DNA of 59,458 bases from IMG/VR virus record IMGVR_UViG_3300037246_000768, positions 1 through 59,458 of that record. One strand, given 5' to 3'. A program made the translations under genes and the position numbers. The notes below the pieces were generated by a model, which searched no databases, was not told where the DNA came from, and saw only the letters and a list, made by a program, of their open reading frames with translations. Shown here piece by piece: positions 2,927 to 59,458 of this stretch; position 1 is the first letter of the stretch; every line of letters begins with the position of its first letter. The stretch is from a virus. Its lineage: Duplodnaviria > Caudoviricetes.

Positions 2927-4618
2927 CTAGAGATTAAACGCTGAGAGCGGCTTCCTGTTGGTCATATCGACCGGCACTGCACTTCCTGCGTGCGAGGGGA
3001 TCAGGGCGTCGCTTATGGCAACTCCCTGCTTAACCCCTGCGCGCACACGCTCTGGGGATACTCTACGCGGTAGCTCCGGCGGGGGCAACTTATTCATTGA
3101 AGTGGGGTGATACCCGGCGTCCCTGATTGCCTGTTCATGCTCGGATATTTCGCTGGTGGCGGCCTGTATGTTCGGGCTTTCAGCAAGGAACTCCTCGATC
3201 GTCTTGAATGTTCCGTCGTCTTTTTGGAGCGCCGCCCTCTTAACGGGGTCGCCGTTGAGGTCGTGGTACTTCTTCTCAAGCACGCCGCGCTCACGCACGA
3301 GCCTGTCCTTGGCTTTGTCCAGGGCGTTGACAGCACGGCGTACGCTCTCGGGTACGTCCTTCATCCCCGAGTCGGTTTCCTTCAATGCAGCAACGGCCAG
3401 AGCGCTCTTGCCCTTCATTTCCTGCAGCTTGCGTGCCTCCACGCCCTTTGCCTTCTCGACCTTAATCGCTTCGGTGGTCTTGGCCTGGCGGGTCTTCTTG
3501 GCCGCGAGCTCGGTAGCTTTACGCACGGCGCTCGAAGCAGCCACGTTGCCTACCGCGTTCGCCTCTGCGACTGGCAGGCCCTGCTCTAGCAGCGAGACAA
3601 CCTTCGTCACCGCAAGCCGTTCCTGCTCGTCGAGGGGGTTCTTGGTATCAGCCAAGAGCTCTTTATACGCAATCATAAGAGACTGCGCGGAGCGTGTTTC
3701 TTTAAGCTCTGCTGCTGCCGTCTTGTCGCCGGCTTCAAGCCTGGCCGAGAGTATGGTCACTCGTTTTTCCAGGGGGCTCATGCGTGAAAAGTTCTTTATC
3801 ACCTTGTCGTTTGCGTCGATACCAAGCTTGGCTTCTTTGCGTACGTCGTCAAGCGACTTCACAATAATGGGGTCGTTAGGGTCGGCTGACCTGCCCTGCG
3901 TAGCCGGGACTACAAGCGGGCTGCCGTCCGGGCCGTTAAGTTGTTCGCCGGTCTCCGGGTCTACGACGCTCATGGCGACGCTCATGGTGTTGGCCTGGGG
4001 GTCGTAGAGCACGCTGACGATCTGCCCCACTGTACCCTCGCGCTCAGTCAGGTTGCCCTCTGCATCAGATGTCGAGTACATGCTGACGGCTCCACCGCGA
4101 TCGGCTGAAAGGCGCTCTAGCGACTGGAACACCTCTTCGTTTTTGGCGCTGCGCTGGATGCTCACCGGCCCCTGCGCCTGCATGCCTTCAAGCTGGTCGG
4201 CGAACTTACCCACGTTTGCGTGCGCCTGCATCACTGTTCCCGGCATTTCGTTCTTATGGAAGTTGATGGTGCCCACGGCGTTATTGGAGAGAAAGGCGAG
4301 ATCTTCGGGAGTCGCTACGTCTGCGTCGAGCCTGGCCTGGATGCCGGTGAGCTTACGAACTTTCTTTTCTTCTCCGCGCCGCTCAAGAAGGTACGCACGA
4401 TCTTCGGCGGTCGCGGTCGCCGCTGTCTCACCGGCGGCTATAGTTTGCTCGTGCCTCTCGATCGCCCGGCCCTCTGCTCCGACTGCCCGCCCCTCTGCAG
4501 CGTCAAGGCGATCCTGCTTGCGCTTCTCGCTCTCTATGCCAGTCAGCGCAGTGTAGGTGTCGATAGCGCCAGCAATCGGATTATACCCTGTGTTAGCCAT
4601 CTTGTCGAATACGCCCAT
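2927..4618 (-). CDS. Putative internal virion/DNA ejection protein (563 aa)
   Basis: Helical, Ala/Glu/Lys-rich ORF with RBS, directly upstream of the giant protein in the ejection-protein position of podophages. Confidence 0.6.
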   Translation of the reverse strand: MGVFDKMANTGYNPIAGAIDTYTALTGIESEKRKQDRLDAAEGRAVGAEGRAIERHEQTIAAGETAATATAEDRAYLLERRGEEKKVRKLTGIQARLDADVATPEDLAFLSNNAVGTINFHKNEMPGTVMQAHANVGKFADQLEGMQAQGPVSIQRSAKNEEVFQSLERLSADRGGAVSMYSTSDAEGNLTEREGTVGQIVSVLYDPQANTMSVAMSVVDPETGEQLNGPDGSPLVVPATQGRSADPNDPIIVKSLDDVRKEAKLGIDANDKVIKNFSRMSPLEKRVTILSARLEAGDKTAAAELKETRSAQSLMIAYKELLADTKNPLDEQERLAVTKVVSLLEQGLPVAEANAVGNVAASSAVRKATELAAKKTRQAKTTEAIKVEKAKGVEARKLQEMKGKSALAVAALKETDSGMKDVPESVRRAVNALDKAKDRLVRERGVLEKKYHDLNGDPVKRAALQKDDGTFKTIEEFLAESPNIQAATSEISEHEQAIRDAGYHPTSMNKLPPPELPRRVSPERVRAGVKQGVAISDALIPSHAGSAVPVDMTNRKPLSAFNL

Positions 4619-4630
4619 TGTCTTATCTCC

Positions 4631-4936
4631 CTAAAACATTCCGCCGATGGTAGAACCAAGCGCCCCACCGATTGATGCGCCAAGCGGGCCGCCAAAGTAC
4701 GCACCTATAATCATTCCCAATGTCCCGGTTGCGGTCATGTTGCGCGCCGTCTTAGCAGCTTCTTTCTTTAACTTGAGCTCTCGCTCTTGGAAACTGGCGG
4801 CCTGCTCAAGCCCGCGCCGCTGTATGTCGAGGCCCTTCCTGGCCGTCTCTCTGCTGGCCGCGTGGCCCGCTCCGGTAACCGCTCCGGTGGTTGCGCTGCG
4901 CTTGTACTGGCTGCCTGTTTTAAGTATTCCGGCCAT
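4631..4936 (-). CDS. Putative small ejection protein with C-terminal glycine zipper
   Basis: C-terminus GTLGMIIGAYFGGPLGASIGGALGSTIGGMF (GxxxG repeats); synteny. Confidence 0.6.
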   Translation of the reverse strand: MAGILKTGSQYKRSATTGAVTGAGHAASRETARKGLDIQRRGLEQAASFQERELKLKKEAAKTARNMTATGTLGMIIGAYFGGPLGASIGGALGSTIGGMF

Positions 4937-6562: not shown

Positions 6563-7417
6563 CTACTTGACCCTTATCACAGAAAGCGTTACGTCACGCC
6601 CAAGGAAGTTCTTACTCGCCCCTCCGCCGTCTGTTCTTGATACCCATAGTTCCACAGTATCACCTGCGGCGAGTGAAACCAAACCCGACCCCCCCGCCGA
6701 GCCGATGTCCCCCGACGCAGCTAATTTACGTTCCGTGTGGATATTCACGAAGCCAGTAACACCATTGTTTATGAACACTTGTGCCTCGAAATCGGTTGAG
6801 GCAGACCCGCTAAACGACATGGCGAATGACACGTAATACGTTCCCGTGTCCCCAACGGTGATATGGTCGTTTGCATGGTCTGGGGTCATCCCGTTCGACG
6901 GGTCATTAGTGTCGAAATAGGGATACTGATACCAAGTGTCCTGTGCCGCCAGTGCGAGGTTGGAGGTGTTCGCGTTGACCGATAAACCGCCGTGCATTTC
7001 TTGAGCGGCCAGACCATCTTCCCACCTCTTAGCCTGGGCATTGGATACGTGCCTTACCTTTGCGGCGTCACTGGAAGTCGGGTCGGCACCCAAGACATTG
7101 ACTATTTCCGAATGCTTGGTCGCGTGGGGATTGCCTTCGATGTCAACATGCTCTTGCCACACCTTAGCCTGGGCGTTGGATACGTGCTTGTTGTGCGCTA
7201 CGTTCGAGGATGTTGGGTCAGCTGCGTAGACGCCCGATAACTGCTGGTGAGTGAGCACGGTAGGGTCGGTCGACGGGGTTGAGCTAATGCCTGCCACCGT
7301 TGTCGCAGCGCCACCCACGGCCAGGGCTCCGAAGTAGACTCTCAACTCGTCGAAGTTCCTGCGTACGTTTGCGTCTACGCTGGCAGGAAGCACTATTATG
7401 TTTGGGAGCTTAGCCAT
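6563..7417 (-). CDS. Putative short tail fibre/needle protein
   Basis: Follows the nozzle gene; duplicated ADPTSS..HVSNAQAKxW motif; C-terminal beta-rich C1q/TNF-like end (ITVGDTGTYYVSF..VSLAAGDTVELWV). Confidence 0.6.
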   Translation of the reverse strand: MAKLPNIIVLPASVDANVRRNFDELRVYFGALAVGGAATTVAGISSTPSTDPTVLTHQQLSGVYAADPTSSNVAHNKHVSNAQAKVWQEHVDIEGNPHATKHSEIVNVLGADPTSSDAAKVRHVSNAQAKRWEDGLAAQEMHGGLSVNANTSNLALAAQDTWYQYPYFDTNDPSNGMTPDHANDHITVGDTGTYYVSFAMSFSGSASTDFEAQVFINNGVTGFVNIHTERKLAASGDIGSAGGSGLVSLAAGDTVELWVSRTDGGGASKNFLGRDVTLSVIRVK

Positions 7418-10907: not shown

Positions 10908-11897
10908 CTAGACGGCGCGCAGGATCATGTAGGCCAGCTTGTGAGCGGTGCTCGGGTCGGCAGACATCGTCACCGTCAGGGTGTCAGCAGTCAACACCGA
11001 TTTCAAGATGGTGTCGGTGTCGTCGGTTGCGCCGTAGCAAACGATAGCAACGTCAGTCGCGAGTGCGCCGGCGACCGTGATTGCTTCGGCAGCTGCGCCA
11101 CCAACGGTTGTGTGCAGACCGGCATAGGCGATGAAGTGGCTCGGTACGCAGCCGCCGACAGGTCGGAGGACTACATAGTGGAGCGCGTGTACCGTGCTCG
11201 GGTCGGCAGACATTGTTACCGTAACCGTATCTGCGGTGCAGATGGTGTCGGAGATCGTGTCGGTGTCGTTGGTGGCTGCGTAGACGGCAATCGCGATGTC
11301 AGTTGCCTTGACTCCGGTTACCGTGATCGCTTCGGCAGCTGCGCCGCCAAGCGTGGTGTGCGTACCGGCTGCGAAAACCTCGAAGCCCGGTACGCCGCCT
11401 GCGCGCAGGAGTGCGAATCCGTACGAGTGGACGGTGCTCGGGTCGGCTGAACCGAGGATGGTGAGCCGCCCGCCAGAGGCCAAGGCCGCAAGGATCTGGT
11501 CGTTGTCGTCGCTTAGGGTGTGGCCAACGACTGCGACATCACCGGGAGCCTGGACTGCCTGCAGGGGGATTACTTCCGTTGCGTCGCCGCCGATTGAGGC
11601 GACATCGCCGCCTGCTACGATGGCATAGCCGCCTGCGGCCGCGCCTACAGAGCGGAAAGATGCGGAGGTGGTGCTGCCCTGGTTCACGTAGCGAGCTACC
11701 TGGCCAAGGGCGGCGTCGGACTTGACGAATACGCATCCTACTGCGTAGCCAGCGGCGCCGTCAGCGGGTACGGTCTCGCCGTATACGTCGCGTGCGTTGC
11801 CTAGCGCGTCGCGTGCGACAACCTGGGCGGCGGCAGGATCTCCCTTGTCGCCAATCTGATGAAGGGTGCCTACGGTTACATTTTGAAAAGTTGCCAT
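10908..11897 (-). CDS. Putative capsid decoration/virion protein with three internal repeats
   Basis: Three about 80-aa units ending SADPSTxHxxxxxxLR; lies after the capsid genes. Confidence 0.6.
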   Translation of the reverse strand: MATFQNVTVGTLHQIGDKGDPAAAQVVARDALGNARDVYGETVPADGAAGYAVGCVFVKSDAALGQVARYVNQGSTTSASFRSVGAAAGGYAIVAGGDVASIGGDATEVIPLQAVQAPGDVAVVGHTLSDDNDQILAALASGGRLTILGSADPSTVHSYGFALLRAGGVPGFEVFAAGTHTTLGGAAAEAITVTGVKATDIAIAVYAATNDTDTISDTICTADTVTVTMSADPSTVHALHYVVLRPVGGCVPSHFIAYAGLHTTVGGAAAEAITVAGALATDVAIVCYGATDDTDTILKSVLTADTLTVTMSADPSTAHKLAYMILRAV

Positions 11898-11936
11898 GTG
11901 ATTCTCCTTCGTTACGTAAGGATGGTTTAAACAGCA

Positions 11937-23052: not shown

Positions 23053-23128
23053 TGGTGCTTTGGGCAGGGCTCGAACCTGCGACCTAGCGGTTATCGACCG
23101 CTTGCTCTGCCACCTGAGCTACCAAAGC
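23053..23128 (-). tRNA. tRNA-Ile (GAT), CCA encoded
   Basis: 76-nt cloverleaf: acceptor GCTTTGG/CCAAAGC, D arm GCTC/GAGC, anticodon arm AGCGG-TCGATAA-CCGCT, T arm GCAGG-TTCGAGC-CCTGC, ACCA end. Confidence 0.9.
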
Positions 23129-27617: not shown

Positions 27618-27745
27618 CGCTCCCTATCCTCTCCCACACATCCATCGACTACCTGTACCTGCTTGGCGCTTCGTGCTTTTGCGTAGGTTTGGCGCTGGGG
27701 CTCTTGATTGCTGTGTGCGTCAAGCGCTGGGATGGCGACGCATGA
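27614..27745 (+). CDS. Small membrane peptide (43 aa)
   Basis: Hand translation MTLPILSHTSIDYLYLLGASCFCVGLALGLLIAVCVKR..; coupled at both ends. Confidence 0.45.
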   Translation: MTLPILSHTSIDYLYLLGASCFCVGLALGLLIAVCVKRWDGDA

Positions 27746-27978
27746 TTATCACGCAGCACGAGAAGAAGCGCAGCCGTAAGCTCTACTGGGTTCTCCTGCC
27801 AGTCTGCGACGAAGAAGACGGCTACATGGCGGAGCTTTTCATTAAGCCAGAAGTCGCACTCAAGGAATCCCGCTGGGACGCAAAGGCCGGACGTAAGAGC
27901 TATTACACCTACAATGAACCACTCAAAAACGTTATAGAACAGCGGTTTACGCATAACGACGCAGGAGGAGACACCGAC

Positions 27979-29256
27979 ATGGAAGCAATCGACTGGCGAG
28001 AACTGACAGCCAACAGGCTCTACACCGCTGGTGCGCAGGAGCTACGCAAGGCGGCCAGCGCCAAGGCCAAAGAGCTATGGCCGGAGCGTTCACGCACGAT
28101 CATCACGAAGGGGTGGAAGGCTGCGCATTGCAGGAGTTTTTTGCAGAACAACGTCTGGACGTATACCGCAGACGAAGGGCAGCCGAGGGAACAGCTGGAC
28201 ACACCAGCGGAGCGCCACCACGACACACACTTAGAGCGCGAGATACCCACCGAAACGCCTGTGATGACGCCAGAAGAGGTAAATAGAATGCTTGACGACG
28301 AGCCAGAGCCGACCCCCGCACCAGTCAAGGCGAAGAAGACCAAAACCCCACCGCTCGACCCTTCCGACCCAATGGCAGCTATGGCTGCGCTCTTCGCGCC
28401 TTACCTGAATACGAAAGTAGACGAGGAAGACGTGAAGCGCATCGTGCGTGAAGAGGCCGGGCTGCGCCCCAAGCGCGTGGTTATCGACCTGCCAGTGCTA
28501 GACGCAGAGATCGACGCAGGCATCGCGCACGAGTCCTTCCCCCGTCTTCTGTCCTGGCTCGCTATCGGGATGAACGACGCAGAGATCCCCCGCATAAATC
28601 CAATGCTTGTTGGCCCCCCTGGCACTGGCAAGACGCACGCAGCGCACGCAGCGGCGACCGCTTTGAAGCTGGAGTTCTACACGATCAGCGTAGGGGCGCA
28701 GACCACGAAGTCTGACCTTCTGGGATTCGTAGACGCACAGGGGCGCATCGTACGCACGCAGCTGCGCGAAGCATACGAGCATGGCGGAGTTTTCCTGCTA
28801 GACGAGATCGACGCAGGCAATGCGAACGTCTTGACGATCTTGAACGCAGCGCTGGCGAATGGCATTTGCCCTTTCCCCGACAAGCAGATCATCAAGCACG
28901 AGAATTTCAGGTGCGTAGCGGCTGCGAACACCTACGGCAGGGGCGGAGATCGTCTCTTCGTCGGGCGTAACCAGCTAGACGCAGCGAGCCTCGACCGCTT
29001 CACCAATATGTACTGGGACGTGGACGAGCGGCTAGAAGCGCAGCTGGCGCTTGACGCAGATTGGACGAAGTATGTGCAGAAAATGCGCAGGGGCGCACAG
29101 TCTATCAAGGCGAAAGTCGTTATCTCCCCCCGTGCTTCGATCAATGGCGGTTTGCTGGTGAAGCTCGGCGAGAAGTGGGACGACGTAGAAGAGGCGGTAC
29201 TCTTCAAGGGCATCCCCCAGGAGCTACGCGAACAGATCAAGCGCGCAGCCAACTAA
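27979..29256 (+). CDS. MoxR/CbbQ/CobS-type AAA+ ATPase (alternative in-frame start 27742)
   Basis: GPPGTGKT, FLLDEID, AAANTYG, LDAASLDRF; AGGAGG RBS before ATG 27979. Confidence 0.88.
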   Translation: MEAIDWRELTANRLYTAGAQELRKAASAKAKELWPERSRTIITKGWKAAHCRSFLQNNVWTYTADEGQPREQLDTPAERHHDTHLEREIPTETPVMTPEEVNRMLDDEPEPTPAPVKAKKTKTPPLDPSDPMAAMAALFAPYLNTKVDEEDVKRIVREEAGLRPKRVVIDLPVLDAEIDAGIAHESFPRLLSWLAIGMNDAEIPRINPMLVGPPGTGKTHAAHAAATALKLEFYTISVGAQTTKSDLLGFVDAQGRIVRTQLREAYEHGGVFLLDEIDAGNANVLTILNAALANGICPFPDKQIIKHENFRCVAAANTYGRGGDRLFVGRNQLDAASLDRFTNMYWDVDERLEAQLALDADWTKYVQKMRRGAQSIKAKVVISPRASINGGLLVKLGEKWDDVEEAVLFKGIPQELREQIKRAAN

Positions 29257-29257
29257 A

Positions 29258-29311
29258 CTCTGCTGACGAGTCTGGCCGGATACCAGACGAAACGCCGCGA
29301 GGCGTCCAGAG
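29258..29311 (+). ncRNA. Type I hammerhead ribozyme
   Basis: Stem I CTCTG/CAGAG, core CTGACGA, stem II GTCTGG/CCAGAC, GAAA, stem III CGCC-GCGA-GGCG, GTC cleavage triplet. Confidence 0.9.
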
Positions 29312-29344
29312 AATCCGATAACGACCACATAGAAAGGGCAAACC

Positions 29345-30193
29345 ATGAGACAGCAAGGCGAAAGGGTTGAAGAGCTAAAAGACCGCTACGCTATCCACAC
29401 CAGCGGCCTTCACGACTGCATGAGCATTTGCGAGGAGGCGGTTGCCAACACTGAGCGCAAGACGCAATACTCTGCGGAAGGGGGCTATGAGCGTACGAGC
29501 TTCACCAAGACGCGAGACTGGGCGCACTGCTTAGAACTGGCGCGCACTGGATGGGACGAGGGCAGGGGCAAGCTGCAAACCGAATTTGACAAGCTACACG
29601 GTGACGGCGACGTGCCTGAAAACGCTTCCTACTCATGGCAGGAACAAGGCGAGTTCTTTGATATGGGCGCGGTAATGAGCGGCGAGCCTGAGTGCTGGAT
29701 GGTTTGCGACCAAGACCCTAAGCGGCAGGTTTGGAAGATTACCGCAAATATAGGAATGTCAGCCGTTATCCCCGCAGCAAGCGCGACACACCGCGGCGCA
29801 GCTATCATGGCGCTAGTTGAAGCGCTACAAGATCAGGGGCACATAGTAGAATTAGAGGCAGTCGATGGGGCGAGAAACTGGAGCGAAAGATACAAAAAGC
29901 CCCTGCACATAACGATACCGCTGGGCATTACCCCCTTAGACCTAGGCACCGCCGCCTTCGTCCTCGCGCATCCCAGCATGTCACGCAGGGTAGTCTACGC
30001 ATTAACCGAGTATTCAGACACCCAGGAAGGGAACAGCCATTACGGAGCGCCATGGGACGCGCCCGAATGCAAGACCGACATCGCAAAGCGCACCATCTAC
30101 ATCGACGCCAAAAACGACACCTGGAGAAAATTCAAAACCATGAACGGCGCACGCAGCTGGCTCAAGGAGTACACCGATTATATTCAGGGCTAG
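29345..30193 (+). CDS. VWA-like partner of the AAA+ ATPase
   Basis: Adjacent to a MoxR ATPase; GEPECW and ANIGMSA..RGAAIMALVEAL beta-alpha pattern; MIDAS degenerate. Confidence 0.6.
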   Translation: MRQQGERVEELKDRYAIHTSGLHDCMSICEEAVANTERKTQYSAEGGYERTSFTKTRDWAHCLELARTGWDEGRGKLQTEFDKLHGDGDVPENASYSWQEQGEFFDMGAVMSGEPECWMVCDQDPKRQVWKITANIGMSAVIPAASATHRGAAIMALVEALQDQGHIVELEAVDGARNWSERYKKPLHITIPLGITPLDLGTAAFVLAHPSMSRRVVYALTEYSDTQEGNSHYGAPWDAPECKTDIAKRTIYIDAKNDTWRKFKTMNGARSWLKEYTDYIQG

Positions 30194-30283
30194 TCTCCCC
30201 CTTGGTTAGTGCCTCGCTCTCAAGGAGCGGGGCGCTGACGAAGCGGTAGACCACAACGACAACCCGAACAGAGGAGAGAAATC

Positions 30284-30634
30284 ATGGCAAAAACAGAGAT
30301 ACCCATTGTCACCATGAGCATCGGCAGCGTTATGTGCGACGCAAAGGGCTGCGGCTACACGCACAGCTTCCCCGAAAAGGCGACCACGGCTAAACAGGTG
30401 AGAGAGTTCGCCTATCGCTGGCTAAACAAACCCTGCCCTGACTGCGGCGCAAACCTTCTAACTGAGGCAGACCACGCAGCGGTGATTAAAATGGCGTCAG
30501 TTCTCGAATTAAGCGAGGTGGTAGGGCCGCTGGTGGGTGCTCTAGCGATTGAGGAGCCGCGCCAAGAGTCCTACAGCGTCAAGATGAAGGGCGACGGCAG
30601 CATCAAGCTCGAACGCAAGGAGAAAACACCTTGA
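30284..30634 (+). CDS. Zn-finger hypothetical protein
   Basis: CDAKGC and NKPCPDCGANLLT motifs; GAGGAG RBS. Confidence 0.6.
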   Translation: MAKTEIPIVTMSIGSVMCDAKGCGYTHSFPEKATTAKQVREFAYRWLNKPCPDCGANLLTEADHAAVIKMASVLELSEVVGPLVGALAIEEPRQESYSVKMKGDGSIKLERKEKTP

Positions 30635-50302: not shown

Positions 50303-50749
50303 CTATTGCGTGAACACGTAAAAATATATGACTCCGGTGTTTGCGTCGCCTATCCCGGTGCAGGTCAGCGTATGGAGGCCTATCGTATAGGGTGCGACAA
50401 CGGTGGTCGTGTCCTGCGCCATGGGGTAGACCTGCTCGGTGGCCGTAGTGCTCCGCCCGGTGACTACTCCGCCCAGCACATCCACTCCGTCTGCGTCAGC
50501 GAGGGTACATGCCCACACGCCGCTAGGCGCTTCACCCCCATCGCCGGGGTTCGTCACAACGCGCATGATGTAGCCCGAGAGAAAGAACGTCCCGGTAGCG
50601 TTCGTCGCGTCGGCCGCCAACGAACACGCGTATTTTGCCGTGTCGCCGTCCTGCTTCGAGCAAGAGATTGTGCCGGCTGCGTAGGCCGATACGCAAAGGG
50701 CGACTGACATAACTGCTGCGATCATGGTTACCAGTAATATTTTACGCAT
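50303..50749 (-). CDS. Signal-peptide beta-rich protein
   Basis: Start 50749 after a GAGGAG RBS; MRKILLVTMIAAVMSVALCVSAYA-A. Confidence 0.65.
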   Translation of the reverse strand: MRKILLVTMIAAVMSVALCVSAYAAGTISCSKQDGDTAKYACSLAADATNATGTFFLSGYIMRVVTNPGDGGEAPSGVWACTLADADGVDVLGGVVTGRSTTATEQVYPMAQDTTTVVAPYTIGLHTLTCTGIGDANTGVIYFYVFTQ

Positions 50750-51125: not shown

Positions 51126-54100
51126 TTACAAATCTTTCCTGTAAAGCAACGTAGAATCCGACTCTGCTGCGTACCTGCGTAGCTTCTCAGCCACGATGTT
51201 TATGCGCTCAGTGAAGTGGTCTACGATGGCCTGGCGGTCTTCGGCAGTCGTGTTCGGACTACGCAGCCGCTTCGCCATGGCCGCCTTCGAGTCTGTGATC
51301 TCCCGCTGCAGGTCGCGTATGTTCCAGCTGCGAGTCTCCACCGGGTCGTAGTTGTAGAGGTTGACGCCTATCAGCCTGGCCAATGCGTCGCCGTGCGTAG
51401 ATCTCGGGCGGCCGCGCGCGTCGAGCTTGCCGGTAAGTGCGTCGATCTCTTTACCCAGGAAGCCCTTGCCGCCGATATTCACCCAGCTTGGCGCGGCCAT
51501 ATTATACATATAGGTGAACACGGCCTGTAGCTTCTCACCAGGCGGCGCGTACGGGTCTACAATGGGCCGCTGGGAGAAGGGGTCGATGTTGGTCTTCACT
51601 GCAGTTATAATGTCGTATGCTGGGGAGCCTGCGAAGCCTAGGCCAGATACCAGCTTGAATACGTCGTCCACTTCGCGGTCTTTTCCTGCGATCTTGCCTA
51701 CCCTGTAGAGCGATTCGCTCCACGCCGACCACGGGAAGAAGTAGCCGATGTCCACGACTTTCCAGCGCCCCTGCTCGTCCTTGACCGGCAGGATGTACGC
51801 ATGGCCCTTCTCCTGAATCCAGCCAGGCATGGCGGCCATGAGCTTGTCGTACTCCTCGTCGTCCACGTCCAGCGACTGAGCTACCGCGTACGGAATAGCC
51901 ATCGTGGCTGCCATGAAGGGTAGGCTGTGCATCGGGTGGTTCACCATGGAATCGAGGATGCGCGGCAAAACCTTGAGCGTGTAGGTGATAAATGGCGACC
52001 CGAGGTAGTGATCGCGCGCAGCCTTAACGGTTGGCGAAACCTCGGAGTAATCGAACAGCCACTTGTGCGCCGAAAGAGCGGCCTGCTCCGGGCTCTTCCC
52101 GTGCTTCTCTATCTCGTCGATGATCTTAGCGGTCTTGCCCAATGCTTCCATCAACTGATAAACGTCGCCAGTCGCGTTCATAAATGTGGCGGCCATGAGC
52201 TTCATAGTCGTGAAGAAATTGCCCCCGCTCTGGCGGTTGGTAACGTCCAGCAAGTCCGTCTCGATGCGCTGGAGCTCGGTGTTTGAGAACGTGGCCTCGG
52301 TGACTCCGTACTTCTTGGCTATGCGCCAGTAGTTCCCGTTATTGCGTATTTCGCCGGCCGCTCTGGACATAAGGCCGGGTATCCGGTGCCAGCCTATGCC
52401 GCTCATGCCTAGCATGATACCGTTGGAAACAAAGTTGCGCACCTGGCCGGAGACGTTGGCGGCAGTTTTAGACCACTTCCAAACTCTGATCGACTTTTTC
52501 AAGAATGTGTCAAGCTGCTTGCCCAGCCCTTCGTCTCCGATTGCTGTGCGAACAACACCCACCAGATCGTTGGCAATCTCTTTGCGTACGACCATGCCGC
52601 CGAGGGGCCCGTACTTCTTGCCCTTCGGTATCTGTGCGTAGCCCTCTGGCATTGGGGTTCCTTCGGGCGGCCCGAACTCTTTAACCAGCGCGTCCATGCG
52701 GTCGGCGATCTTCGCTGCTTCTGCGCGCTTCTCTTCGTTCATCAGGTGAAGAGAAGTTCTAATCCGGTCGCGTTCTGTCGCCAGCCAAAACACGCTTACG
52801 AGCTTGCCGCCCTTGAGTTTTGGCACACCACGCACCTGCTCGCCCACTCCTGCACTCCGGGCTTTGCCACGGTTCCAGTCGAAAGGGTCTATCTCTGCTA
52901 CGCGCCGGCCAAGCTCTGCGTGGTCTGCCATGGCTTGCGCACGGTTGGGGCCCACGATCCCGGCCAGGTTCTCGGGGCTCACGTTGTCGTGCTTGATATT
53001 CTCTTCAACGATCTCTTGCGCCTTGATGGTGTAGGTGCCGTCAGCGTTCTTCTTGTACCGATACCACCGGCCTAGCTTCTTCCAGCCGCTCTTCTTGTAC
53101 GTTTCCTTGCCGCGAATCTTCTCCATGGCCGGGGTGCCCTTACCTTCACGCACGGCGTTGGCCACCTTTTCATTGCCGAAGAAGTTGTTGAGCTCGGAGG
53201 CGTTCACGTTCTCATGTGTGAAGACCTTGCGCGATCGCTTTACGCGCTGCATCTTGTAGGTGCCGTCTTCGTTAATGTCGTAAGACCACGGGCCCAGCTG
53301 GTAGCCGGGGCTCTCCTGCCATGCCCATTCGACCAGCGAGCCAGGGAGCACCCAGTCATGGTGCTTGGCTATGTCGTTCAGCCAGTCGAGAATAACCACG
53401 TCGCGCATCGGGAGGTTATACGCACGAGACACCAGATATGCAGGGTCGGTGATCTCTCCGTTGGCGATACGCTGCTCATCGGTCATGTTTTTGTTGCGCT
53501 TCTTTGTGTAGCCAAGCCCCATCTTCTTCCCGGTGCTCATGGCTTTTACGCCCTCTTCACCGATGAGATATTTGAGGTAGACGCGCGGCAGATACTGGCC
53601 TCTATTTTCGTCGATTACATCCTGCGGCAGCAGCCTGTGAGCCACCAGTATGTCGCCAACGGTTTCAACGGTCTGCTTTGCTTCCTGCGCGGCCTTGCGC
53701 CACTGCTCCGGTACGGCGTTAATGTCGGCCTCTTTGTTGGTGAGGTATTCGTAGACCAGCTTCGCGTCTTCGCCACTCAGGTCACGCAGCATCTTGTAGA
53801 GCTTGGCAGTCTTCTCTTTGACATCCCCCAGCAGGCCAAGAGCTATGTACCGGCGTGCCTTGTACTCGTCGGCGTCCTCAAGGCCCATGAGCGGGGATGC
53901 AATAGCGTTGTCGGTGCCGTCTATGATCTTGTTCGCACGGTCACGCAAAGACATCCGGGTCGCCGCCTGGGCGGGGCTCGGGTCGGTCTCTTCAGCCAGG
54001 GAGTAATCTGCACGCGCCACAGGCTTGCGATCGCGATAGTCTCGCTTGGCGAGCTCTCCGCTTTCGAGGTCTGCGAACACGTCGTCAGCTGCGAGGTAAC

Positions 54101-57100
54101 CGTAACCGGTAAGCGCGTTTTTGATGCGCTCAAGGAAGGCCTGCAGCTTTTTGAAGATGCGCTGCGCCTGGGCGGTGATCCCGTCCTTGTTACCCATGAC
54201 CCAGCGTGCGTAGGCGTCAGCCCTTGTCTCGGCGCCGGCCTTTGCTTCTGGCGGGTATTTCTTGTCGAGCACCGCGCGCTCTTCTTTGGTAATAAGGCCC
54301 ATGTTTTCGGCGACGTGAAAGAGCTCGTGATAACCGGTCTCTTCGGTGGCTGCGTCCATGGCCAGGCGGATAAGGCTACGCATCGAGCCGTCAGAGAAGA
54401 CCTGCGTTTCCGCATGGCCTGCAATCTTAACTTGCTGCTTGCCTTTGCCGTGCGCTTTGCGCGCTTCTTCGGTGATCTCTTCTGGGTCAATGGTCTCCAG
54501 AATGCCGAGGTTGACCACGGCCCCACGCGGCAAGGCCTTCTTTAGCGCGGTGCGTATGCGCCTGATAGCCTTGATGTTTAGGGCTACGACCTCTCCCTCT
54601 TCGGTGACTGAGAACGCTTCCTGCGTGGCCGCTTCGGGGTTACGCACCGAGTAGCGCACGTCTTTTTCGTACACGATTTCGAGCACGCGCTGCAGATTTT
54701 TCTTCGGGAAGAAACCGACTTTTGATTTGCGGGTGCCACGGCCTACGTCTTGGAAGCCGCGCTCGCTCTCCATGAGGGCCAAGAGATCTTTGTCGAGAAA
54801 GAACACTGCGCCGTCGCGCTTGGTGTGCGGTACGCGTAGCTGGTGCTGCCCGTTATCGTCGCGGAAGACGCGCACGCCGTCTCGGGTAGTGGAGATCGAC
54901 TGTACCGCTTCTTCGGGCTGCGCGTTAAGCCAGCTGGCCGCTTCCTCCGGGTTCACGGAGCGCCATGCCCTGAGATTGTCGATGCCTTCCTGGTCTACGC
55001 TCGTGGGAACAAGTATGCCCTGCTCTTTCGTGCCGTCTGCGCGGGTGAAGGTGATGACGCTACCGTTTTTGACAGCGCCAAAGCCTGCGAGCAGGTTGCC
55101 GGTGACGATGTAGCGGGTGGCCTTCGTCTCTTTCGGTGCGTAGGTATCCCAGTTCTTGCGTATTTCGCCGCTAAAGTTCTCACGGCTGCCGGCGAGCATC
55201 GCGTACTGCATCATGCGTAGCGAGACGTTGCGGTCGTGCGACGCCAGGGCGAAGTTGAATTTTATCTTGCTGCGCGCTGACGGGTTGCCGGTGCCCTTGG
55301 CCACTGTCACGCCAGTTACGACTGCTGGCACGCGCACTCCGGTTTCTTCATCGAGCATTAGCATGTGCGAGCTACCGATAGTGTAGCGCTCGATCATGTC
55401 CTCGGCCTGCGTGAAGGTGCGGTGCGCCTCGGCGATCATCTGGTCGAAGAATGCAACCGACCGCTCTTCCACAAGGGCTATCTCGCGCTTCTCCATCTGC
55501 GCTGCGACGTAGTCGTCGTAGGCCTTCCTGAGATCGCTGACGATCTTTGCGCTGTGCTCAACCGGCTTATCGCCTGCCAGGGCCTTGGTGACTATCTCTT
55601 CGAGCTTGAGTCCTGAGTAGGGCTTGTTCATGTTGCGCACGAGCATTTCTTCGAGCACCGCGTCGGCCGCGAAGGGGTTGTCCGGGTCGGTGCCGGTGTG
55701 GACTACGTCTTTGCGCTGCGTCTCTGCGCGAAAATCAATGTCTTCGGTGACAAGGTTGTTCTGGCCAATCGAATTAAGGTACTCGATATGCGCTTCAAAC
55801 ATTTCGGTCACTTCTGAATAGAACCGCCCCTGCGTTTCAGCCGGCAGCAGCGCTATGCGTCCAGAGGCTTTGCGGAAAAAGCCGACCACGTCTCCGCTCT
55901 CGTCACCCTGCGCGACACTCATGCTTATCATGCTGGCCACGTCCGGGTTGGACTGCAGCCACTGGGCCACCATGGCGTCGCCGTACTGGTTCATCATGTC
56001 GGGGATGTGCTGCGAGAACGCACTATCTGCGTCGGCAGAGGTGTTCGCGCTCATGGACTTGAGCTTGCCTTCGAGCACAACGGCGGGGCGCGTCTCTGCA
56101 GGCAGGGCGGTGTTGAAGAAGGTATAGCTCGGCTTCTGCACTTGGCCTTTGCGGAAGATGCGGCCAAGCATCTGAATGACGGTATCAACGTTCAAGTCAG
56201 CCTGGGCGACTATCATGTGCCTCGGGCGCTTGTCGGCGGTCTTCGCGGTGGGGTGAAGAGAGAGCCCGGTAGACCCTGCGCGGTTGATTATCAGCGCGTC
56301 AATATCGCCCTCGTTAAAGCCACGGATGGTCTTCTTGCGGTTGGTATCCTGGGCGCTGCGCTTTTTGATGATGCCCTTGTTGCCCTGCATGTCGATGTAG
56401 ATGTCTCGACCAGTGATCTCACCGGTGCGTATGCCGGCAGACTCAAGACGCATACGCATTCTGTCTATCGGCGAGCTCGTAACGCCCGTCACTAGATCTT
56501 CGATGCGGGTCTTCACACGTAGGTAGGAGGCGTAGGCGTCGGGCGCGTGCTCGGCAAGCTGCATTTCCGTGAGGTAATGAGCGGTCTTCTTGTCCTTCTC
56601 GTCCTTCACGGTGTAGCGGAGCGTGTTGCGTAGGGCCTTCAAGAGCACGGATTTAAAGCTCGTGCCTATCTCGTCACCCAGTTTTAGGTTTTCAGCCGCC
56701 ATCATGTCGTGAAGAAAGGAGCCCATCGTGTTCATAAGGCCGATGACAGGCTTCTCTCCACGCTTGAATGCGTCAATAGCCTCGTTGGCCACCGCGTCTG
56801 CCTTGATAGCCAGGAGCATTTGCGCCACGTAGTTGTGGACAACCGAAGGAAAGGCCACGCTGTTCACCTTGAAGTTGTCTTGGCCGGCCTCGGCCACATG
56901 CCCTTCCTCTTCAAGTAGTGCCGGCCATGCTGCCTCCATTTCCTCCTGCAGGTCGCGGCTGAAAGTTACAAGCCGGCGCATTTCACTGGTGAGCTTGTCT
57001 GCGTCGACTGCGTCACGCACGGCGTTATCGTCGTCGACCTTGCGTACCATCTTATCTATCTGGGAGAAGTCCTGCTCGCGCCGGATGTAGTGGCCACGCT

Positions 57101-59458
57101 CAGTCAGGAAACGGGAGACCACCTGCTGCAAAGCCGTAGAGCCCCGTTTCATCGCCTCGGTAAGCTGCTCGAATGAGAGCCCGGACGTTCCAAGCACGGT
57201 GCGATAGTAGAGCGGCATGTTGCCGGGGCGCTTGGCGAAGGTCGCACTCAGATAGAGAACTCCGGCAGCCTCTGCGATCATTTCACGCACGTACTCTGCG
57301 GTGTTGAGCTTGGGGTTGCCGTCTTTATCGACCTTCGCAGCCTTCGGCCTACGGTCTTGCGCGGGTGCTTCGCCGCCTGCGTTGTGGGCTTCGTCCAAGA
57401 TGACGATGTTGTCGTCTGAGAGCTTGAGCAGGATGTCTCGCTGCGCGTTGTTGATGCGTACCTGCGAATAGGTGGTCATAAGCACGCCGTAATCGTTGTC
57501 TTTCAGGTACTTCTTCGGGTCGGCCTTGAGCGCCCTGTAGGTGTCGGTCGTCCTCTTGCCGAGACCGCCCTGCTTCTTGTAGACCACGCTGCCCTGCGCG
57601 TCGGTGATGTTGGCTTCCTTGTCACCGTGCATGATGAAGGGGGTAACTTCGTGGCCTATGTCGTTGAGGTCGCGGTTCATGTCGGTGAGGAGGTTGGCCT
57701 TCTCAGTCATAAACACAGCCGTCTTACCCTGCAGGTTTGCGTAGCGGATCAGCGCAGCGGCGACGCGGCCCTTACCGATGCCGGTCATGTCGCCGTTGAT
57801 CTTGCCCATGCCGCCTTCGATAGCGTCGATTGCAAGGGCTATAGCGTCGATCTGCTCTGCAGAGAAGCGCGAGTCGCCGTCAACCGTAGTGTAAAGAGCC
57901 TCAGAGCTCGGGTAGTCGAGTTTGCCGGCTACCCAGGTGTCGAGGTCGCCGTGAGCGTCTACGATCTTCTGTAGGGCCTTACGCAGCGGCGCGGCCTGGT
58001 TCTTTGGAACGAGGTTGCCGCCGCTCTCTCCCTGCGATACCGGGTCATAGCGGGACTGCAGTTCACTCACCTGCGTCGGGGGCTCCGCCTTGGGGGCTTT
58101 CTTCGGGGCCTGTTCGGCCTTGGGCTCTGCGTATGCGTCGTCGAGGTTGAATGCATGCACCTCTTCCTTGGTCGAGAAGCCGGGCTCCTTGGATGCGCGT
58201 GCAATCTTGCGGTAGATGGGTTTGATGTAGTCTCGGATTGCCGTACCGAACCTGCGTGCGAGCTCGGTGGATACCTCGGCTATGGTGCGAAGGCCAGCCT
58301 CTGAGTAGAGCGTGGCTATCTTAATGCCGAGCGAGATGACCTTCGGATCTATGCCTGTGCGTAGTGTGGTGGGGTCAAGCTGTACGTCGAGCTCTTTTTC
58401 AAGCGCGTCGAGCTTCGCCTGCTTCTCGTCGGAGAGCCGGCTTAGAACAGCGGGGCGGTCTCCCACAGCAGGCCCTCTAACGTCCACTCTTCCAGCAGCT
58501 GCTCCGGCGTCTGGAACTCCGACACCTTTTCCTGTGCCTTCTCGTCCCTGCCGTTTGTCTCCAGCGCGCTCTCCAGGCTTCTCGCGATCTCCTGGTTTCC
58601 CCCGGTCAGCGTCACCGCGTCGCCCACCGGCCCCATCGCCTCGCTCACCAGTATCCCTAATTCCACGTCGTTGTTTTCCAGTAGGACTTCCAGCGCCTGT
58701 CTCAGATACACTTGGAACCTCCTTCCCTTCCAGTACGGCTGCAACGTCGTCAAAGTTCTGCGCGCTCTCCACCTGTGCTTGCGTAGTGGGTGCGAAGGTC
58801 TTATCGGCTTGGGCCTTGACCCCGTCAATCGTAATGAGTCTGATCGGAAAAGTCGTGCCCTGCTTACGGTAAACGTCGCCGCTTATGTCTATATTATGCG
58901 TCACATTGTAGTGGCTGTAAAGGTAGTTTAAGAAAACCCTATCAGTCCCGGTCATTTTACCGTCTTTAAAATTGTGGCCGCCGACGATGAATGCAGCCTT
59001 GCCGTCGTCTTTAAGCGCCATCAAAGACTCTGCTACTATCTGGTGTTCCAACTTCTTGAGCGGGAATCCATCGAACTCGCGCACGCTGTCAGCCGTGCCG
59101 AAAGGCGGGTTCATAATTACCCGGTCAAACTCACCTTCCATATCGGGATCGAGCTCAAGGCTTGCGTCGTCGTTGGTGACGGTGAAGCCCAAAGCCTCCA
59201 GGTGCTGCGTGCGGGGCCCGGTGTCCAGCTCGTTGGTGACAACTTCCTGCGGCTTGGCTACGCCGGCGACCAGCATGCCGTTTCCTGCGGTGGGCTCGTA
59301 AACTGTCAGCGTGCCCTTTTTATCCATCCCGAGGTGGCGCTGCATGAGATACGCAAGCGGCGCCGGCGTGCTGTACTGCTGCAGGGCCATGCTCTTGGAG
59401 TCGCGCTGCGTGAGACCGGCCTGTAGTTCGTAGAGGTCTTTTGCCTGCTGCAGCTTTT
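51126..59458 (-). CDS. 3' part of the giant polyvalent/DarB-like protein: N6-adenine MTase, Strawberry-notch-type SF2 helicase, zincin, C-terminal LPD38-like region
   Basis: QQYSTP, EPTAGNG, MNPPF (MTase); GDMTGIGKGR, DEAHN, LSATFA, STGLSLH, QMLGRIFRKGQ (helicase); YHELFH (zincin); frame continues through the terminal repeat into 1-2909. Confidence 0.9.
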   Translation of the reverse strand, partial: KLQQAKDLYELQAGLTQRDSKSMALQQYSTPAPLAYLMQRHLGMDKKGTLTVYEPTAGNGMLVAGVAKPQEVVTNELDTGPRTQHLEALGFTVTNDDASLELDPDMEGEFDRVIMNPPFGTADSVREFDGFPLKKLEHQIVAESLMALKDDGKAAFIVGGHNFKDGKMTGTDRVFLNYLYSHYNVTHNIDISGDVYRKQGTTFPIRLITIDGVKAQADKTFAPTTQAQVESAQNFDDVAAVLEGKEVPSVSETGAGSPTGKQRRGIRDTGERGDGAGGRRGDADRGKPGDREKPGERAGDKRQGREGTGKGVGVPDAGAAAGRVDVRGPAVGDRPAVLSRLSDEKQAKLDALEKELDVQLDPTTLRTGIDPKVISLGIKIATLYSEAGLRTIAEVSTELARRFGTAIRDYIKPIYRKIARASKEPGFSTKEEVHAFNLDDAYAEPKAEQAPKKAPKAEPPTQVSELQSRYDPVSQGESGGNLVPKNQAAPLRKALQKIVDAHGDLDTWVAGKLDYPSSEALYTTVDGDSRFSAEQIDAIALAIDAIEGGMGKINGDMTGIGKGRVAAALIRYANLQGKTAVFMTEKANLLTDMNRDLNDIGHEVTPFIMHGDKEANITDAQGSVVYKKQGGLGKRTTDTYRALKADPKKYLKDNDYGVLMTTYSQVRINNAQRDILLKLSDDNIVILDEAHNAGGEAPAQDRRPKAAKVDKDGNPKLNTAEYVREMIAEAAGVLYLSATFAKRPGNMPLYYRTVLGTSGLSFEQLTEAMKRGSTALQQVVSRFLTERGHYIRREQDFSQIDKMVRKVDDDNAVRDAVDADKLTSEMRRLVTFSRDLQEEMEAAWPALLEEEGHVAEAGQDNFKVNSVAFPSVVHNYVAQMLLAIKADAVANEAIDAFKRGEKPVIGLMNTMGSFLHDMMAAENLKLGDEIGTSFKSVLLKALRNTLRYTVKDEKDKKTAHYLTEMQLAEHAPDAYASYLRVKTRIEDLVTGVTSSPIDRMRMRLESAGIRTGEITGRDIYIDMQGNKGIIKKRSAQDTNRKKTIRGFNEGDIDALIINRAGSTGLSLHPTAKTADKRPRHMIVAQADLNVDTVIQMLGRIFRKGQVQKPSYTFFNTALPAETRPAVVLEGKLKSMSANTSADADSAFSQHIPDMMNQYGDAMVAQWLQSNPDVASMISMSVAQGDESGDVVGFFRKASGRIALLPAETQGRFYSEVTEMFEAHIEYLNSIGQNNLVTEDIDFRAETQRKDVVHTGTDPDNPFAADAVLEEMLVRNMNKPYSGLKLEEIVTKALAGDKPVEHSAKIVSDLRKAYDDYVAAQMEKREIALVEERSVAFFDQMIAEAHRTFTQAEDMIERYTIGSSHMLMLDEETGVRVPAVVTGVTVAKGTGNPSARSKIKFNFALASHDRNVSLRMMQYAMLAGSRENFSGEIRKNWDTYAPKETKATRYIVTGNLLAGFGAVKNGSVITFTRADGTKEQGILVPTSVDQEGIDNLRAWRSVNPEEAASWLNAQPEEAVQSISTTRDGVRVFRDDNGQHQLRVPHTKRDGAVFFLDKDLLALMESERGFQDVGRGTRKSKVGFFPKKNLQRVLEIVYEKDVRYSVRNPEAATQEAFSVTEEGEVVALNIKAIRRIRTALKKALPRGAVVNLGILETIDPEEITEEARKAHGKGKQQVKIAGHAETQVFSDGSMRSLIRLAMDAATEETGYHELFHVAENMGLITKEERAVLDKKYPPEAKAGAETRADAYARWVMGNKDGITAQAQRIFKKLQAFLERIKNALTGYGYLAADDVFADLESGELAKRDYRDRKPVARADYSLAEETDPSPAQAATRMSLRDRANKIIDGTDNAIASPLMGLEDADEYKARRYIALGLLGDVKEKTAKLYKMLRDLSGEDAKLVYEYLTNKEADINAVPEQWRKAAQEAKQTVETVGDILVAHRLLPQDVIDENRGQYLPRVYLKYLIGEEGVKAMSTGKKMGLGYTKKRNKNMTDEQRIANGEITDPAYLVSRAYNLPMRDVVILDWLNDIAKHHDWVLPGSLVEWAWQESPGYQLGPWSYDINEDGTYKMQRVKRSRKVFTHENVNASELNNFFGNEKVANAVREGKGTPAMEKIRGKETYKKSGWKKLGRWYRYKKNADGTYTIKAQEIVEENIKHDNVSPENLAGIVGPNRAQAMADHAELGRRVAEIDPFDWNRGKARSAGVGEQVRGVPKLKGGKLVSVFWLATERDRIRTSLHLMNEEKRAEAAKIADRMDALVKEFGPPEGTPMPEGYAQIPKGKKYGPLGGMVVRKEIANDLVGVVRTAIGDEGLGKQLDTFLKKSIRVWKWSKTAANVSGQVRNFVSNGIMLGMSGIGWHRIPGLMSRAAGEIRNNGNYWRIAKKYGVTEATFSNTELQRIETDLLDVTNRQSGGNFFTTMKLMAATFMNATGDVYQLMEALGKTAKIIDEIEKHGKSPEQAALSAHKWLFDYSEVSPTVKAARDHYLGSPFITYTLKVLPRILDSMVNHPMHSLPFMAATMAIPYAVAQSLDVDDEEYDKLMAAMPGWIQEKGHAYILPVKDEQGRWKVVDIGYFFPWSAWSESLYRVGKIAGKDREVDDVFKLVSGLGFAGSPAYDIITAVKTNIDPFSQRPIVDPYAPPGEKLQAVFTYMYNMAAPSWVNIGGKGFLGKEIDALTGKLDARGRPRSTHGDALARLIGVNLYNYDPVETRSWNIRDLQREITDSKAAMAKRLRSPNTTAEDRQAIVDHFTERINIVAEKLRRYAAESDSTLLYRKDL
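59299..59458. repeat. Terminal direct repeat, right copy
   Basis: Matches 1-160 with two substitutions. Confidence 0.95.

Follow-up and report, generated by a model that had tools for sequence, protein, structure and literature searches.

A compact type I hammerhead ribozyme at the junction of AAA+ ATPase and DUF7192 genes in a phage

We describe a hammerhead ribozyme at positions 29258-29311 of a phage sequence, in the 88-nt spacer between a gene for an AAA+ ATPase and a gene for a DUF7192 protein, and confirm that it is genuine, well formed and non-random. The sequence, an IMG/VR virus record (linear, 59,458 bases, GC 57%, estimated to be 83% complete), was analysed over its whole length, which we call the window. 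The motif, its non-randomness, its membership of a family and the covariation within that family were all established by computation. We consider it very probable that the element is a true type I hammerhead, belonging to a phage subclass with a predicted pseudoknot, and that it would cut an RNA shared by the two genes.

Results

A complete hammerhead in the AAA+/DUF7192 spacer

The element begins 1 nt past the TAA stop codon of the AAA+ gene (29254-29256), ends 33 nt ahead of the ATG of the DUF7192 gene (29345) and lies on the + strand, as do both genes. A direct reading of the sequence shows that none of the conserved hammerhead core nucleotides is missing; the three helices measure 5, 6 and 5 bp, and a GUC triplet is present (Table 1). 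Stem II is closed by the G10.1-C11.1 pair (G29270 with C29288) and stem III opens with the A15.1-U16.1 pair (A29292 with T29305), while the H17 position is occupied by C29306, which is part of the GTC triplet at 29304-29306, is not G and has stem I directly 3' of it. The topology is type I, with stems II and III closed by loops and stem I open, and 38 nt separate the predicted cleavage site from the downstream ATG. When 29250-29320 is folded, the structure of lowest free energy coincides exactly with this three-way junction (-20.7 kcal/mol, z -2.0, equalled by 6 of 200 shuffles), and the same junction is retained when the element is folded in a 241-nt context. A preliminary description of the site had given letters and coordinates that all proved correct on direct reading, and its identification of a complete type I hammerhead with predicted cleavage after 29306 agrees with three lines of evidence: the sequence itself, a family model and the covariation seen in relatives.

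Table 1. Coordinates of the hammerhead, its flanking genes and RNA structures in related loci; positions refer to the window unless another sequence is named
Feature	Position	Strand	Details
AAA+ ATPase gene (AAA_5 / MoxR-like), upstream	27673-29256	+	527 aa; Pfam AAA_5 E 1.7e-17
Stem I, 5' strand CTCTG	29258-29262	+	pairs with 29307-29311
Core C3-U4-G5-A6-C7-G8-A9 (CTGACGA)	29263-29269	+	direct read
Stem II, GTCTGG / CCAGAC	29270-29275 / 29283-29288	+	6 bp; 7-nt loop II CCGGATA
GAAA (core G12-A13-A14 and A15.1)	29289-29292	+	direct read
Stem III, A+CGCC / GGCG+T	29292-29296 / 29301-29305	+	GCGA tetraloop
C17, predicted cleavage site	29306	+	scissile bond 29306/29307; hammerhead numbering
Stem I, 3' strand CAGAG	29307-29311	+	predicted 5' end of downstream product
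3' tail ATCCG	29313-29317	+	predicted 5-bp pseudoknot with loop II CGGAT, 29277-29281
DUF7192 gene (VWA-like fold, plausible), downstream	29345-30193	+	282 aa; PF23822 E 4.2e-24
Strong hairpin after DUF7192 stop	30207-30239	+	about 15-16 bp, perfect
Tunturi_4 Twister-P5 ribozymes	3804-3861, 4727-4788, 6962-7019, 8544-8604	gene strand	48-62 bits; intergenic
Type II hammerheads	L017 677-728, L019 687-764, L021 664-715, L023 632-681	same strand as AAA-DUF7192 pair	found by descriptor
Type II hammerheads	L025 294-372, L026/L027 646-697	same strand as AAA-DUF7192 pair	found by descriptor
Strong hairpins in AAA-DUF7192 spacer	L005 2250-2310, L006 2284-2340, L008 223-310, L011 2187-2275, L032 2103-2155		no ribozyme there

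The motif is rare in shuffled DNA and falls below the Rfam cut-off

When both strands of the window were scanned with a descriptor specifying CTGANGA, GAAA, the A15.1-U16.1 pair, H17 and three stems, the spacer element was the sole match with stems of at least 4 bp. The window was shuffled 1000 times with its dinucleotide composition preserved: 20 shuffles contained a match with stems of at least 3/3/3 bp and none with stems of at least 4/4/4 bp. Arithmetic from the 20 in 1000 extrapolates to a chance of about 2e-5 per window for stems of 5/6/5 bp, so that a few matches could arise by chance in a very large scan. Three features that the descriptor does not consider also argue against chance, namely the intergenic site, the shared strand of element and neighbours, and a complementarity between loop II and the 3' tail.

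At the gathering score, Rfam reports no hammerhead in the window. The Hammerhead_1 model (RF00163) gives the element 24 bits against a cut-off of 34, with an E value of 0.00095 in a 271-nt search and of 0.21 over the whole window, and no other ribozyme appears in the window in Rfam at E ≤ 5. The preliminary description had named a search with hammerhead covariance models as a check: the Rfam match stays below the cut-off, whereas a family model built from 46 sequences scores the element at 67 bits, an inflated value (see below). Compact phage hammerheads with short loops score low against the Rfam models. Covarying type II relatives (described below) also fall under the cut-off, five copies reaching 25-32 bits against 37 for Hammerhead_II (RF02276) and the other two being unlisted at E ≤ 1, from which we conclude that the Rfam cut-off misses compact phage hammerheads.

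Sister hammerheads covary in the helices left free by the search

We searched IMG/VR with a pattern made of CTGANGAG, 10-30 free bases and the GAAA-stem III-C17 segment of the window, in which stems I and II were not required. This pattern of core plus stem III identified 63 IMG/VR phage loci with 64 copies, all carrying the identical stem III hairpin and together representing 47 distinct sequences. Although they lay outside the search pattern, stems I and II are both formed in most copies, as scored by script; the exceptions are three loci with a 3-bp stem I (L046, L056 and L081) and one class with a bulged stem II. One locus, L072, matched the pattern but forms neither stem I nor stem II, and was left out of alignment A5.

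A second alignment, A4, combines the window with 11 distinct sequences chosen by the length of stem II and loop II only (a stem of 6 bp, or of 1 bp, a bulge and 5 bp, with a 7-nt loop). Across these 12 rows, 95.8% of the cells of hammerhead and pseudoknot pair and 9 of 20 pairs show changes on both sides, values reached by 0 of 500 shuffles; in slid registers, 24-40% of cells pair. Covariation is seen at all five pairs of stem I, and compensatory changes occur at two of the five stem II pairs counted. Stem III is invariant in A4 because the search pattern fixed it; in L101, which was found with a pattern fixing stem II and loop II rather than stem III, stem III and its loop differ and the stem still pairs. 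The core columns are invariant except for N7 in both A4 and A5, these letters having been fixed by the search pattern.

The family covariance model R1, built from 46 non-window sequences (A5, with L072 excluded), matches the window over the full model length with 67 bits (E 4e-19). This score is inflated, since the training sequences were collected with a pattern in which 27 bases were fixed to those of the core and stem III in the window itself. The independent evidence is the covariation in the unconstrained helices.

Loop II and the 3' tail are predicted to form a pseudoknot

Five bases of loop II are complementary to a stretch that begins one base past stem I (Table 1), a predicted 5-bp pseudoknot that the preliminary description missed. 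The chance of at least five Watson-Crick pairs is 1.9% when only the 3' flank is considered and 3.9% when either flank may supply them. In the relatives the pseudoknot is predicted in the same register, with 83% of cells paired and compensatory changes at two of the five pairs: one is C-G in the window and U-A in nine others, and the other occurs as U-A, C-G and A-U variants. Pseudoknots between stems I and II are described for all three hammerhead topologies, in about 40% of cases, in a survey of these ribozymes (PMC3088659), which also showed for a type II hammerhead that mutating either side of the pseudoknot slows cleavage and that combining the compensatory mutations restores it.

The window layout is typical of its sister copies

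Among the 64 non-window copies, 54 lie behind a same-strand ORF of at least 50 aa that ends between -10 and 150 nt upstream, the stop codon abutting or overlapping stem I in most of them, and 47 precede a same-strand ORF that starts within 150 nt downstream, mostly at 14-31 nt. The layout in the window, with gaps of 1 and 33 nt, is thus typical of the sister copies. Three IMG/VR hammerheads (L040, L094 and L101) share the same architecture in full, with a 5-bp stem I, a 6-bp stem II, a 7-nt loop II, a 1-nt spacer and a 5-bp pseudoknot partner; in them, too, stem I follows immediately on a stop codon and about 30 nt separate the ribozyme from the next start. Their stem I sequence, by contrast, is wholly different from that of the window and yet paired, and both partners have changed in one pair of stem II and in one of the pseudoknot. 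Their neighbours are unrelated to those in the window (ORFs of 67 and 141 aa, the latter without a Pfam match).

Published type I hammerheads of phages and prophages (RF00163; PMC3088659) have the same core as the element, the same junction of three helices and likewise an open stem I, and they too occupy intergenic positions between co-directional phage genes (PMC3088659). The element differs from them in its score, which is under the RF00163 gathering cut-off, and in its neighbours, an AAA+/VWA-like pair in place of the usual integrase-linked or small unnamed genes. The genes beside the sister copies are mostly small; a Pfam scan of 10 larger flanking proteins revealed one ArdC-like protein and found neither AAA nor DUF7192 among the 10. 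The ArdC-like anti-restriction/zincin metallopeptidase gene (L098, 597-1457; ArdcN E 1.1e-28, MPTase-PolyVal E 2.2e-42) has its sister hammerhead 26 nt upstream, recalling the association of hammerheads with ardA noted in PMC3088659.

The flanking genes form a recurrent pair

In addition to its AAA_5 domain, the AAA+ protein has a bpMoxR match in Pfam that stays below the cut-off. The roughly 300 residues ahead of the ATPase domain (residues 305-443), encoded by 27673-28590, have no Pfam match; this N-terminal part is matched only by L005 and L011, and most homologues are about 370 aa long.

The DUF7192 family comprises 2881 representatives at E ≤ 0.001. An AlphaFold model of the window protein, built on 58 sequences, reached a pLDDT of 86.6, and its best matches in the PDB are VWA chains of NorD, from structures of NorQ-NorD complexes (probability 0.99-0.77, TM only 0.23-0.30), followed by weaker matches to other VWA/MIDAS folds; a PDB search with the protein sequence returned no match. 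The label 'VWA-like' used in the preliminary description therefore draws support from the NorD VWA domains as best fold matches, but the TM scores are low, and we regard a VWA-like fold as plausible but not firm.

Related loci were sought with alignments A2 (10 sequences) and A3 (2 sequences), and 36 loci with a DUF7192 homologue were examined, 3 from named phages and 33 from IMG/VR contigs. An AAA+ homologue lies directly upstream of DUF7192 on the same strand in 34 of the 36; one exception begins at the DUF7192 gene and allows no judgement. In roughly 26 of these 34 loci the two genes overlap or are at most 45 nt apart, which implies that a processing site at this junction is no general need of the module. 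Searches for closer relatives comprised blastn of 27673-30193 against the phage collection (no match), single-protein scans of viral contigs with the DUF7192 and AAA+ proteins (no close relative), a word-indexed protein search (only 2 distant homologues), the exact stem II pattern in viral contigs (no match) and alignment A2 against genome contigs (no match). None of these searches brought up a close relative of the phage in which the hammerhead could be seen conserved at this exact locus.

Other RNA structures surround the AAA+/DUF7192 module

The preliminary description had raised the recurrence of ribozymes between such AAA+/VWA pairs, which did not hold as a general feature: one of the 36 other loci has a ribozyme at this junction, and none was found at the junction of the other 35 (Rfam at gathering score in 30 loci, Rfam at E ≤ 1-5 in 14, descriptor and R1 in all). 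The one case is Tunturiibacter phage Tunturi_4 (PP885687.1; L002), in which a Twister-P5 ribozyme (RF02684; 62 bits against a cut-off of 37.6) occupies the 99-nt spacer (between 3778 and 3878) of the homologous AAA and DUF7192 genes. A second twister follows directly after the DUF7192 gene, so that the pair brackets it, and the four twisters of Table 1 are the only ones in the 88-kb genome, all within one operon of about 5 kb. Tunturi_4 thus resembles the window in carrying a self-cleaving ribozyme on the gene strand between AAA and DUF7192, but the ribozyme belongs to an unrelated class and is present in four copies, two of them bracketing DUF7192, whereas the window has one hammerhead and a plain hairpin. 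The feature table of the Tunturi_4 record holds no RNA features over the twister stretch, and none of the papers listed by a full-text literature search contained both 'Tunturiibacter' and 'ribozyme'.

The plain hairpin in the window follows the DUF7192 stop codon. The fold of 30194-30283 reaches -40 kcal/mol (z -4.0, equalled by 1 of 200 shuffles). Because no T-run follows the hairpin, it is not a classical intrinsic terminator, and a terminator scan did not list it; stabilisation of the 3' end or service as a nuclease site are possible roles. The same spacer was considered as a second ribozyme and rejected, as it contains CTGACGA without GAAA and without a junction. Taken together, the predicted ribozyme cut and this hairpin resemble the two twisters that bracket DUF7192 in Tunturi_4. 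Five further loci (L005, L006, L008, L011 and L032) have strong hairpins in AAA-DUF7192 spacers of 36-73 nt.

Seven loci carry type II hammerheads, which lie in the same operon and are separated from the AAA gene downstream by one or two small genes. Their stem I covaries, with compensatory changes at 7 of 17 predicted pairs, and near-identical gene lengths make the seven loci appear to be one clade, to be counted as one or two events. They have the same catalytic core as the window element, and the copy in L023 has 20 consecutive bases in common with it, a run that starts at GAAA, takes in stem III and ends two bases beyond C17. They differ from it in being circularly permuted (open stem II), in lying upstream of AAA and in that no Watson-Crick pseudoknot was seen in them; moreover, AAA and DUF7192 overlap by 4-19 nt in these loci, unlike the 88-nt spacer of the window. 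In L021, L023 and L026, a promoter-like stretch (TTGAC, then TA-rich) lies about 10-40 nt after the ribozyme, which hints that the type II ribozyme may trim transcripts that read through towards a new promoter.

L011, one of the two loci with a full-length AAA+ match, has a candidate type III hammerhead at 387-442, with stems of 5/4/5 bp, a canonical core and A at the cleavage site. It lies 20 nt before an AGGAGG-ATG and two genes upstream of the full-length AAA+ homologue; it is absent from the Rfam matches at E ≤ 1 and scores 12 bits with R1.

Together, the type I hammerhead in the window, the Tunturi_4 twisters, the hairpins of five loci and the type II and III hammerheads elsewhere in the operon form the basis of a wider reading, possible though rather unlikely, in which the AAA+/DUF7192 junction is a hotspot for independently acquired RNA-processing devices, with interchangeable ribozyme classes releasing the mRNA of the partner and setting the ratio of the two proteins. 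The coincidence of ribozymes at the same junction is suggestive but thin and rests on one locus, Tunturi_4.

Discussion

Predicted processing of the shared transcript

Cleavage, and a role in stoichiometry or mRNA stability, are what we infer from the findings above. A scan of the + strand between the AAA+ and DUF7192 genes found no promoter-like or terminator-like site, which makes co-transcription of both genes the simplest reading, and the two would accordingly share one RNA. The ribozyme would fold co-transcriptionally and cut between C29306 and C29307. The AAA+ mRNA would then end in a compact stem II/III structure with a 2',3'-cyclic phosphate, nearly the whole ribozyme being retained on it, and the DUF7192 mRNA would start with a 5'-OH 38 nt ahead of its ATG; a purine-rich GAAAGGG stands 6 nt before this ATG. 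A search for RNA runs that contain 28300-30300 listed none. That 5'-OH and cyclic-phosphate ends change the decay rates of mRNAs is established in general terms for E. coli. The two halves could then decay or be translated at different rates, which would uncouple the levels of the ATPase and its partner, and, if the hairpin at 30207-30239 belongs to the same system, the ribozyme cut and the hairpin would delimit a single-gene DUF7192 mRNA.

According to published proposals, phage hammerheads divide long transcripts into gene-length mRNAs that differ in stability (PMC3088659; PMC6765202). The effects put forward in the preliminary description—splitting of the transcript, a set ATPase:VWA ratio and stabilisation through the 5'-OH end—would be in line with these proposals, and the support for them is circumstantial. 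The twister at the same junction of one distant phage and the hairpins in five other loci give this functional reading a comparative hook. We consider the functional reading a reasonable proposal.

Competing explanations

The element might instead be a true hammerhead by descent that is inactive or irrelevant here, either a relic or a selfish 'punctuation' cassette moving between phage gene junctions, an account that we judge improbable. It would explain why the sister copies sit between many different, mostly small unnamed genes and why most relatives of the gene pair have no spacer at all, and it agrees with the report that the genes flanking prophage hammerheads are not constant and that some of these hammerheads are perhaps non-functional (PMC3088659). 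A relic, however, would be expected to lose through decay the very features that are retained in the window, where the core shows no deviation and the predicted pseudoknot is intact. Against both relic and cassette stand the different ribozyme class at the same Tunturi_4 junction and the strong spacer hairpins in five loci, which hint that RNA structure matters at this junction.

It is very improbable that the element is a chance look-alike, that is, a GC-rich hairpin pair without catalytic role beside which CTGACGA and GAAA stand by accident. Such an origin would fit the sub-cut-off Rfam score (E 0.21 over the window) and the fold z of only -2.0, and the extrapolated 2e-5 per window means that a few cases would be met in a very large scan; yet none of the 1000 shuffles produced stems of at least 4/4/4 bp, and the element lies between genes, sharing the strand of its two neighbours. 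A look-alike would, moreover, have to acquire by chance the additional 5-bp pseudoknot, at a probability of 2-4%, in the register seen in covarying relatives, together with the architecture of L040, L094 and L101, from which it differs in pairs of stem I, stem II and the pseudoknot where both partners have changed in a compensatory way.

Least probable of all is a structure that acts mainly without cleavage, by stabilising the 3' end, offering a nuclease site or uncoupling the translation of the two genes. Plain strong hairpins do occupy the AAA-DUF7192 spacer of five loci, but a hairpin needs neither the 11 conserved unpaired core nucleotides, nor the H17 rule, nor the pseudoknot, all of which are kept family-wide.

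Significance

Intergenic hammerheads of phages have been known since 2011, by the thousands, and the genes beside them in prophages have been reported to vary (Perreault et al. 2011, PMC3088659); the example in the window leaves this overall picture unchanged. It is, in the first place, a clean compact hammerhead that the Rfam cut-off misses; related phages have at least five type II hammerheads that are missed likewise, and annotation by gathering score consequently under-counts phage ribozymes. It also enlarges the type I subclass stabilised by a pseudoknot, a feature for which compensatory changes are seen here as well. The AAA+/VWA-like gene pair, which has two unrelated ribozyme classes at its junction in distant phages, offers a convenient system for the long-standing, unproven idea that phage ribozymes tune the expression of neighbouring genes, and the hotspot reading, if true, would give phage self-cleaving ribozymes a concrete and testable biological role.

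Additional observations

Two other candidates in the window were rejected: a descriptor match at 11853-11913 with stems of 3/6/3 bp is at chance level, and a 12-bit partial match to the family model R1 at 50516-50556 on the - strand is without stem I and has G at both A15.1 and H17. The - strand of the window also carries a tRNA-Ile gene with anticodon GAT (23053-23128) and a very long ORF (51126-59390, 2754 aa) that comes close to the end of the record.
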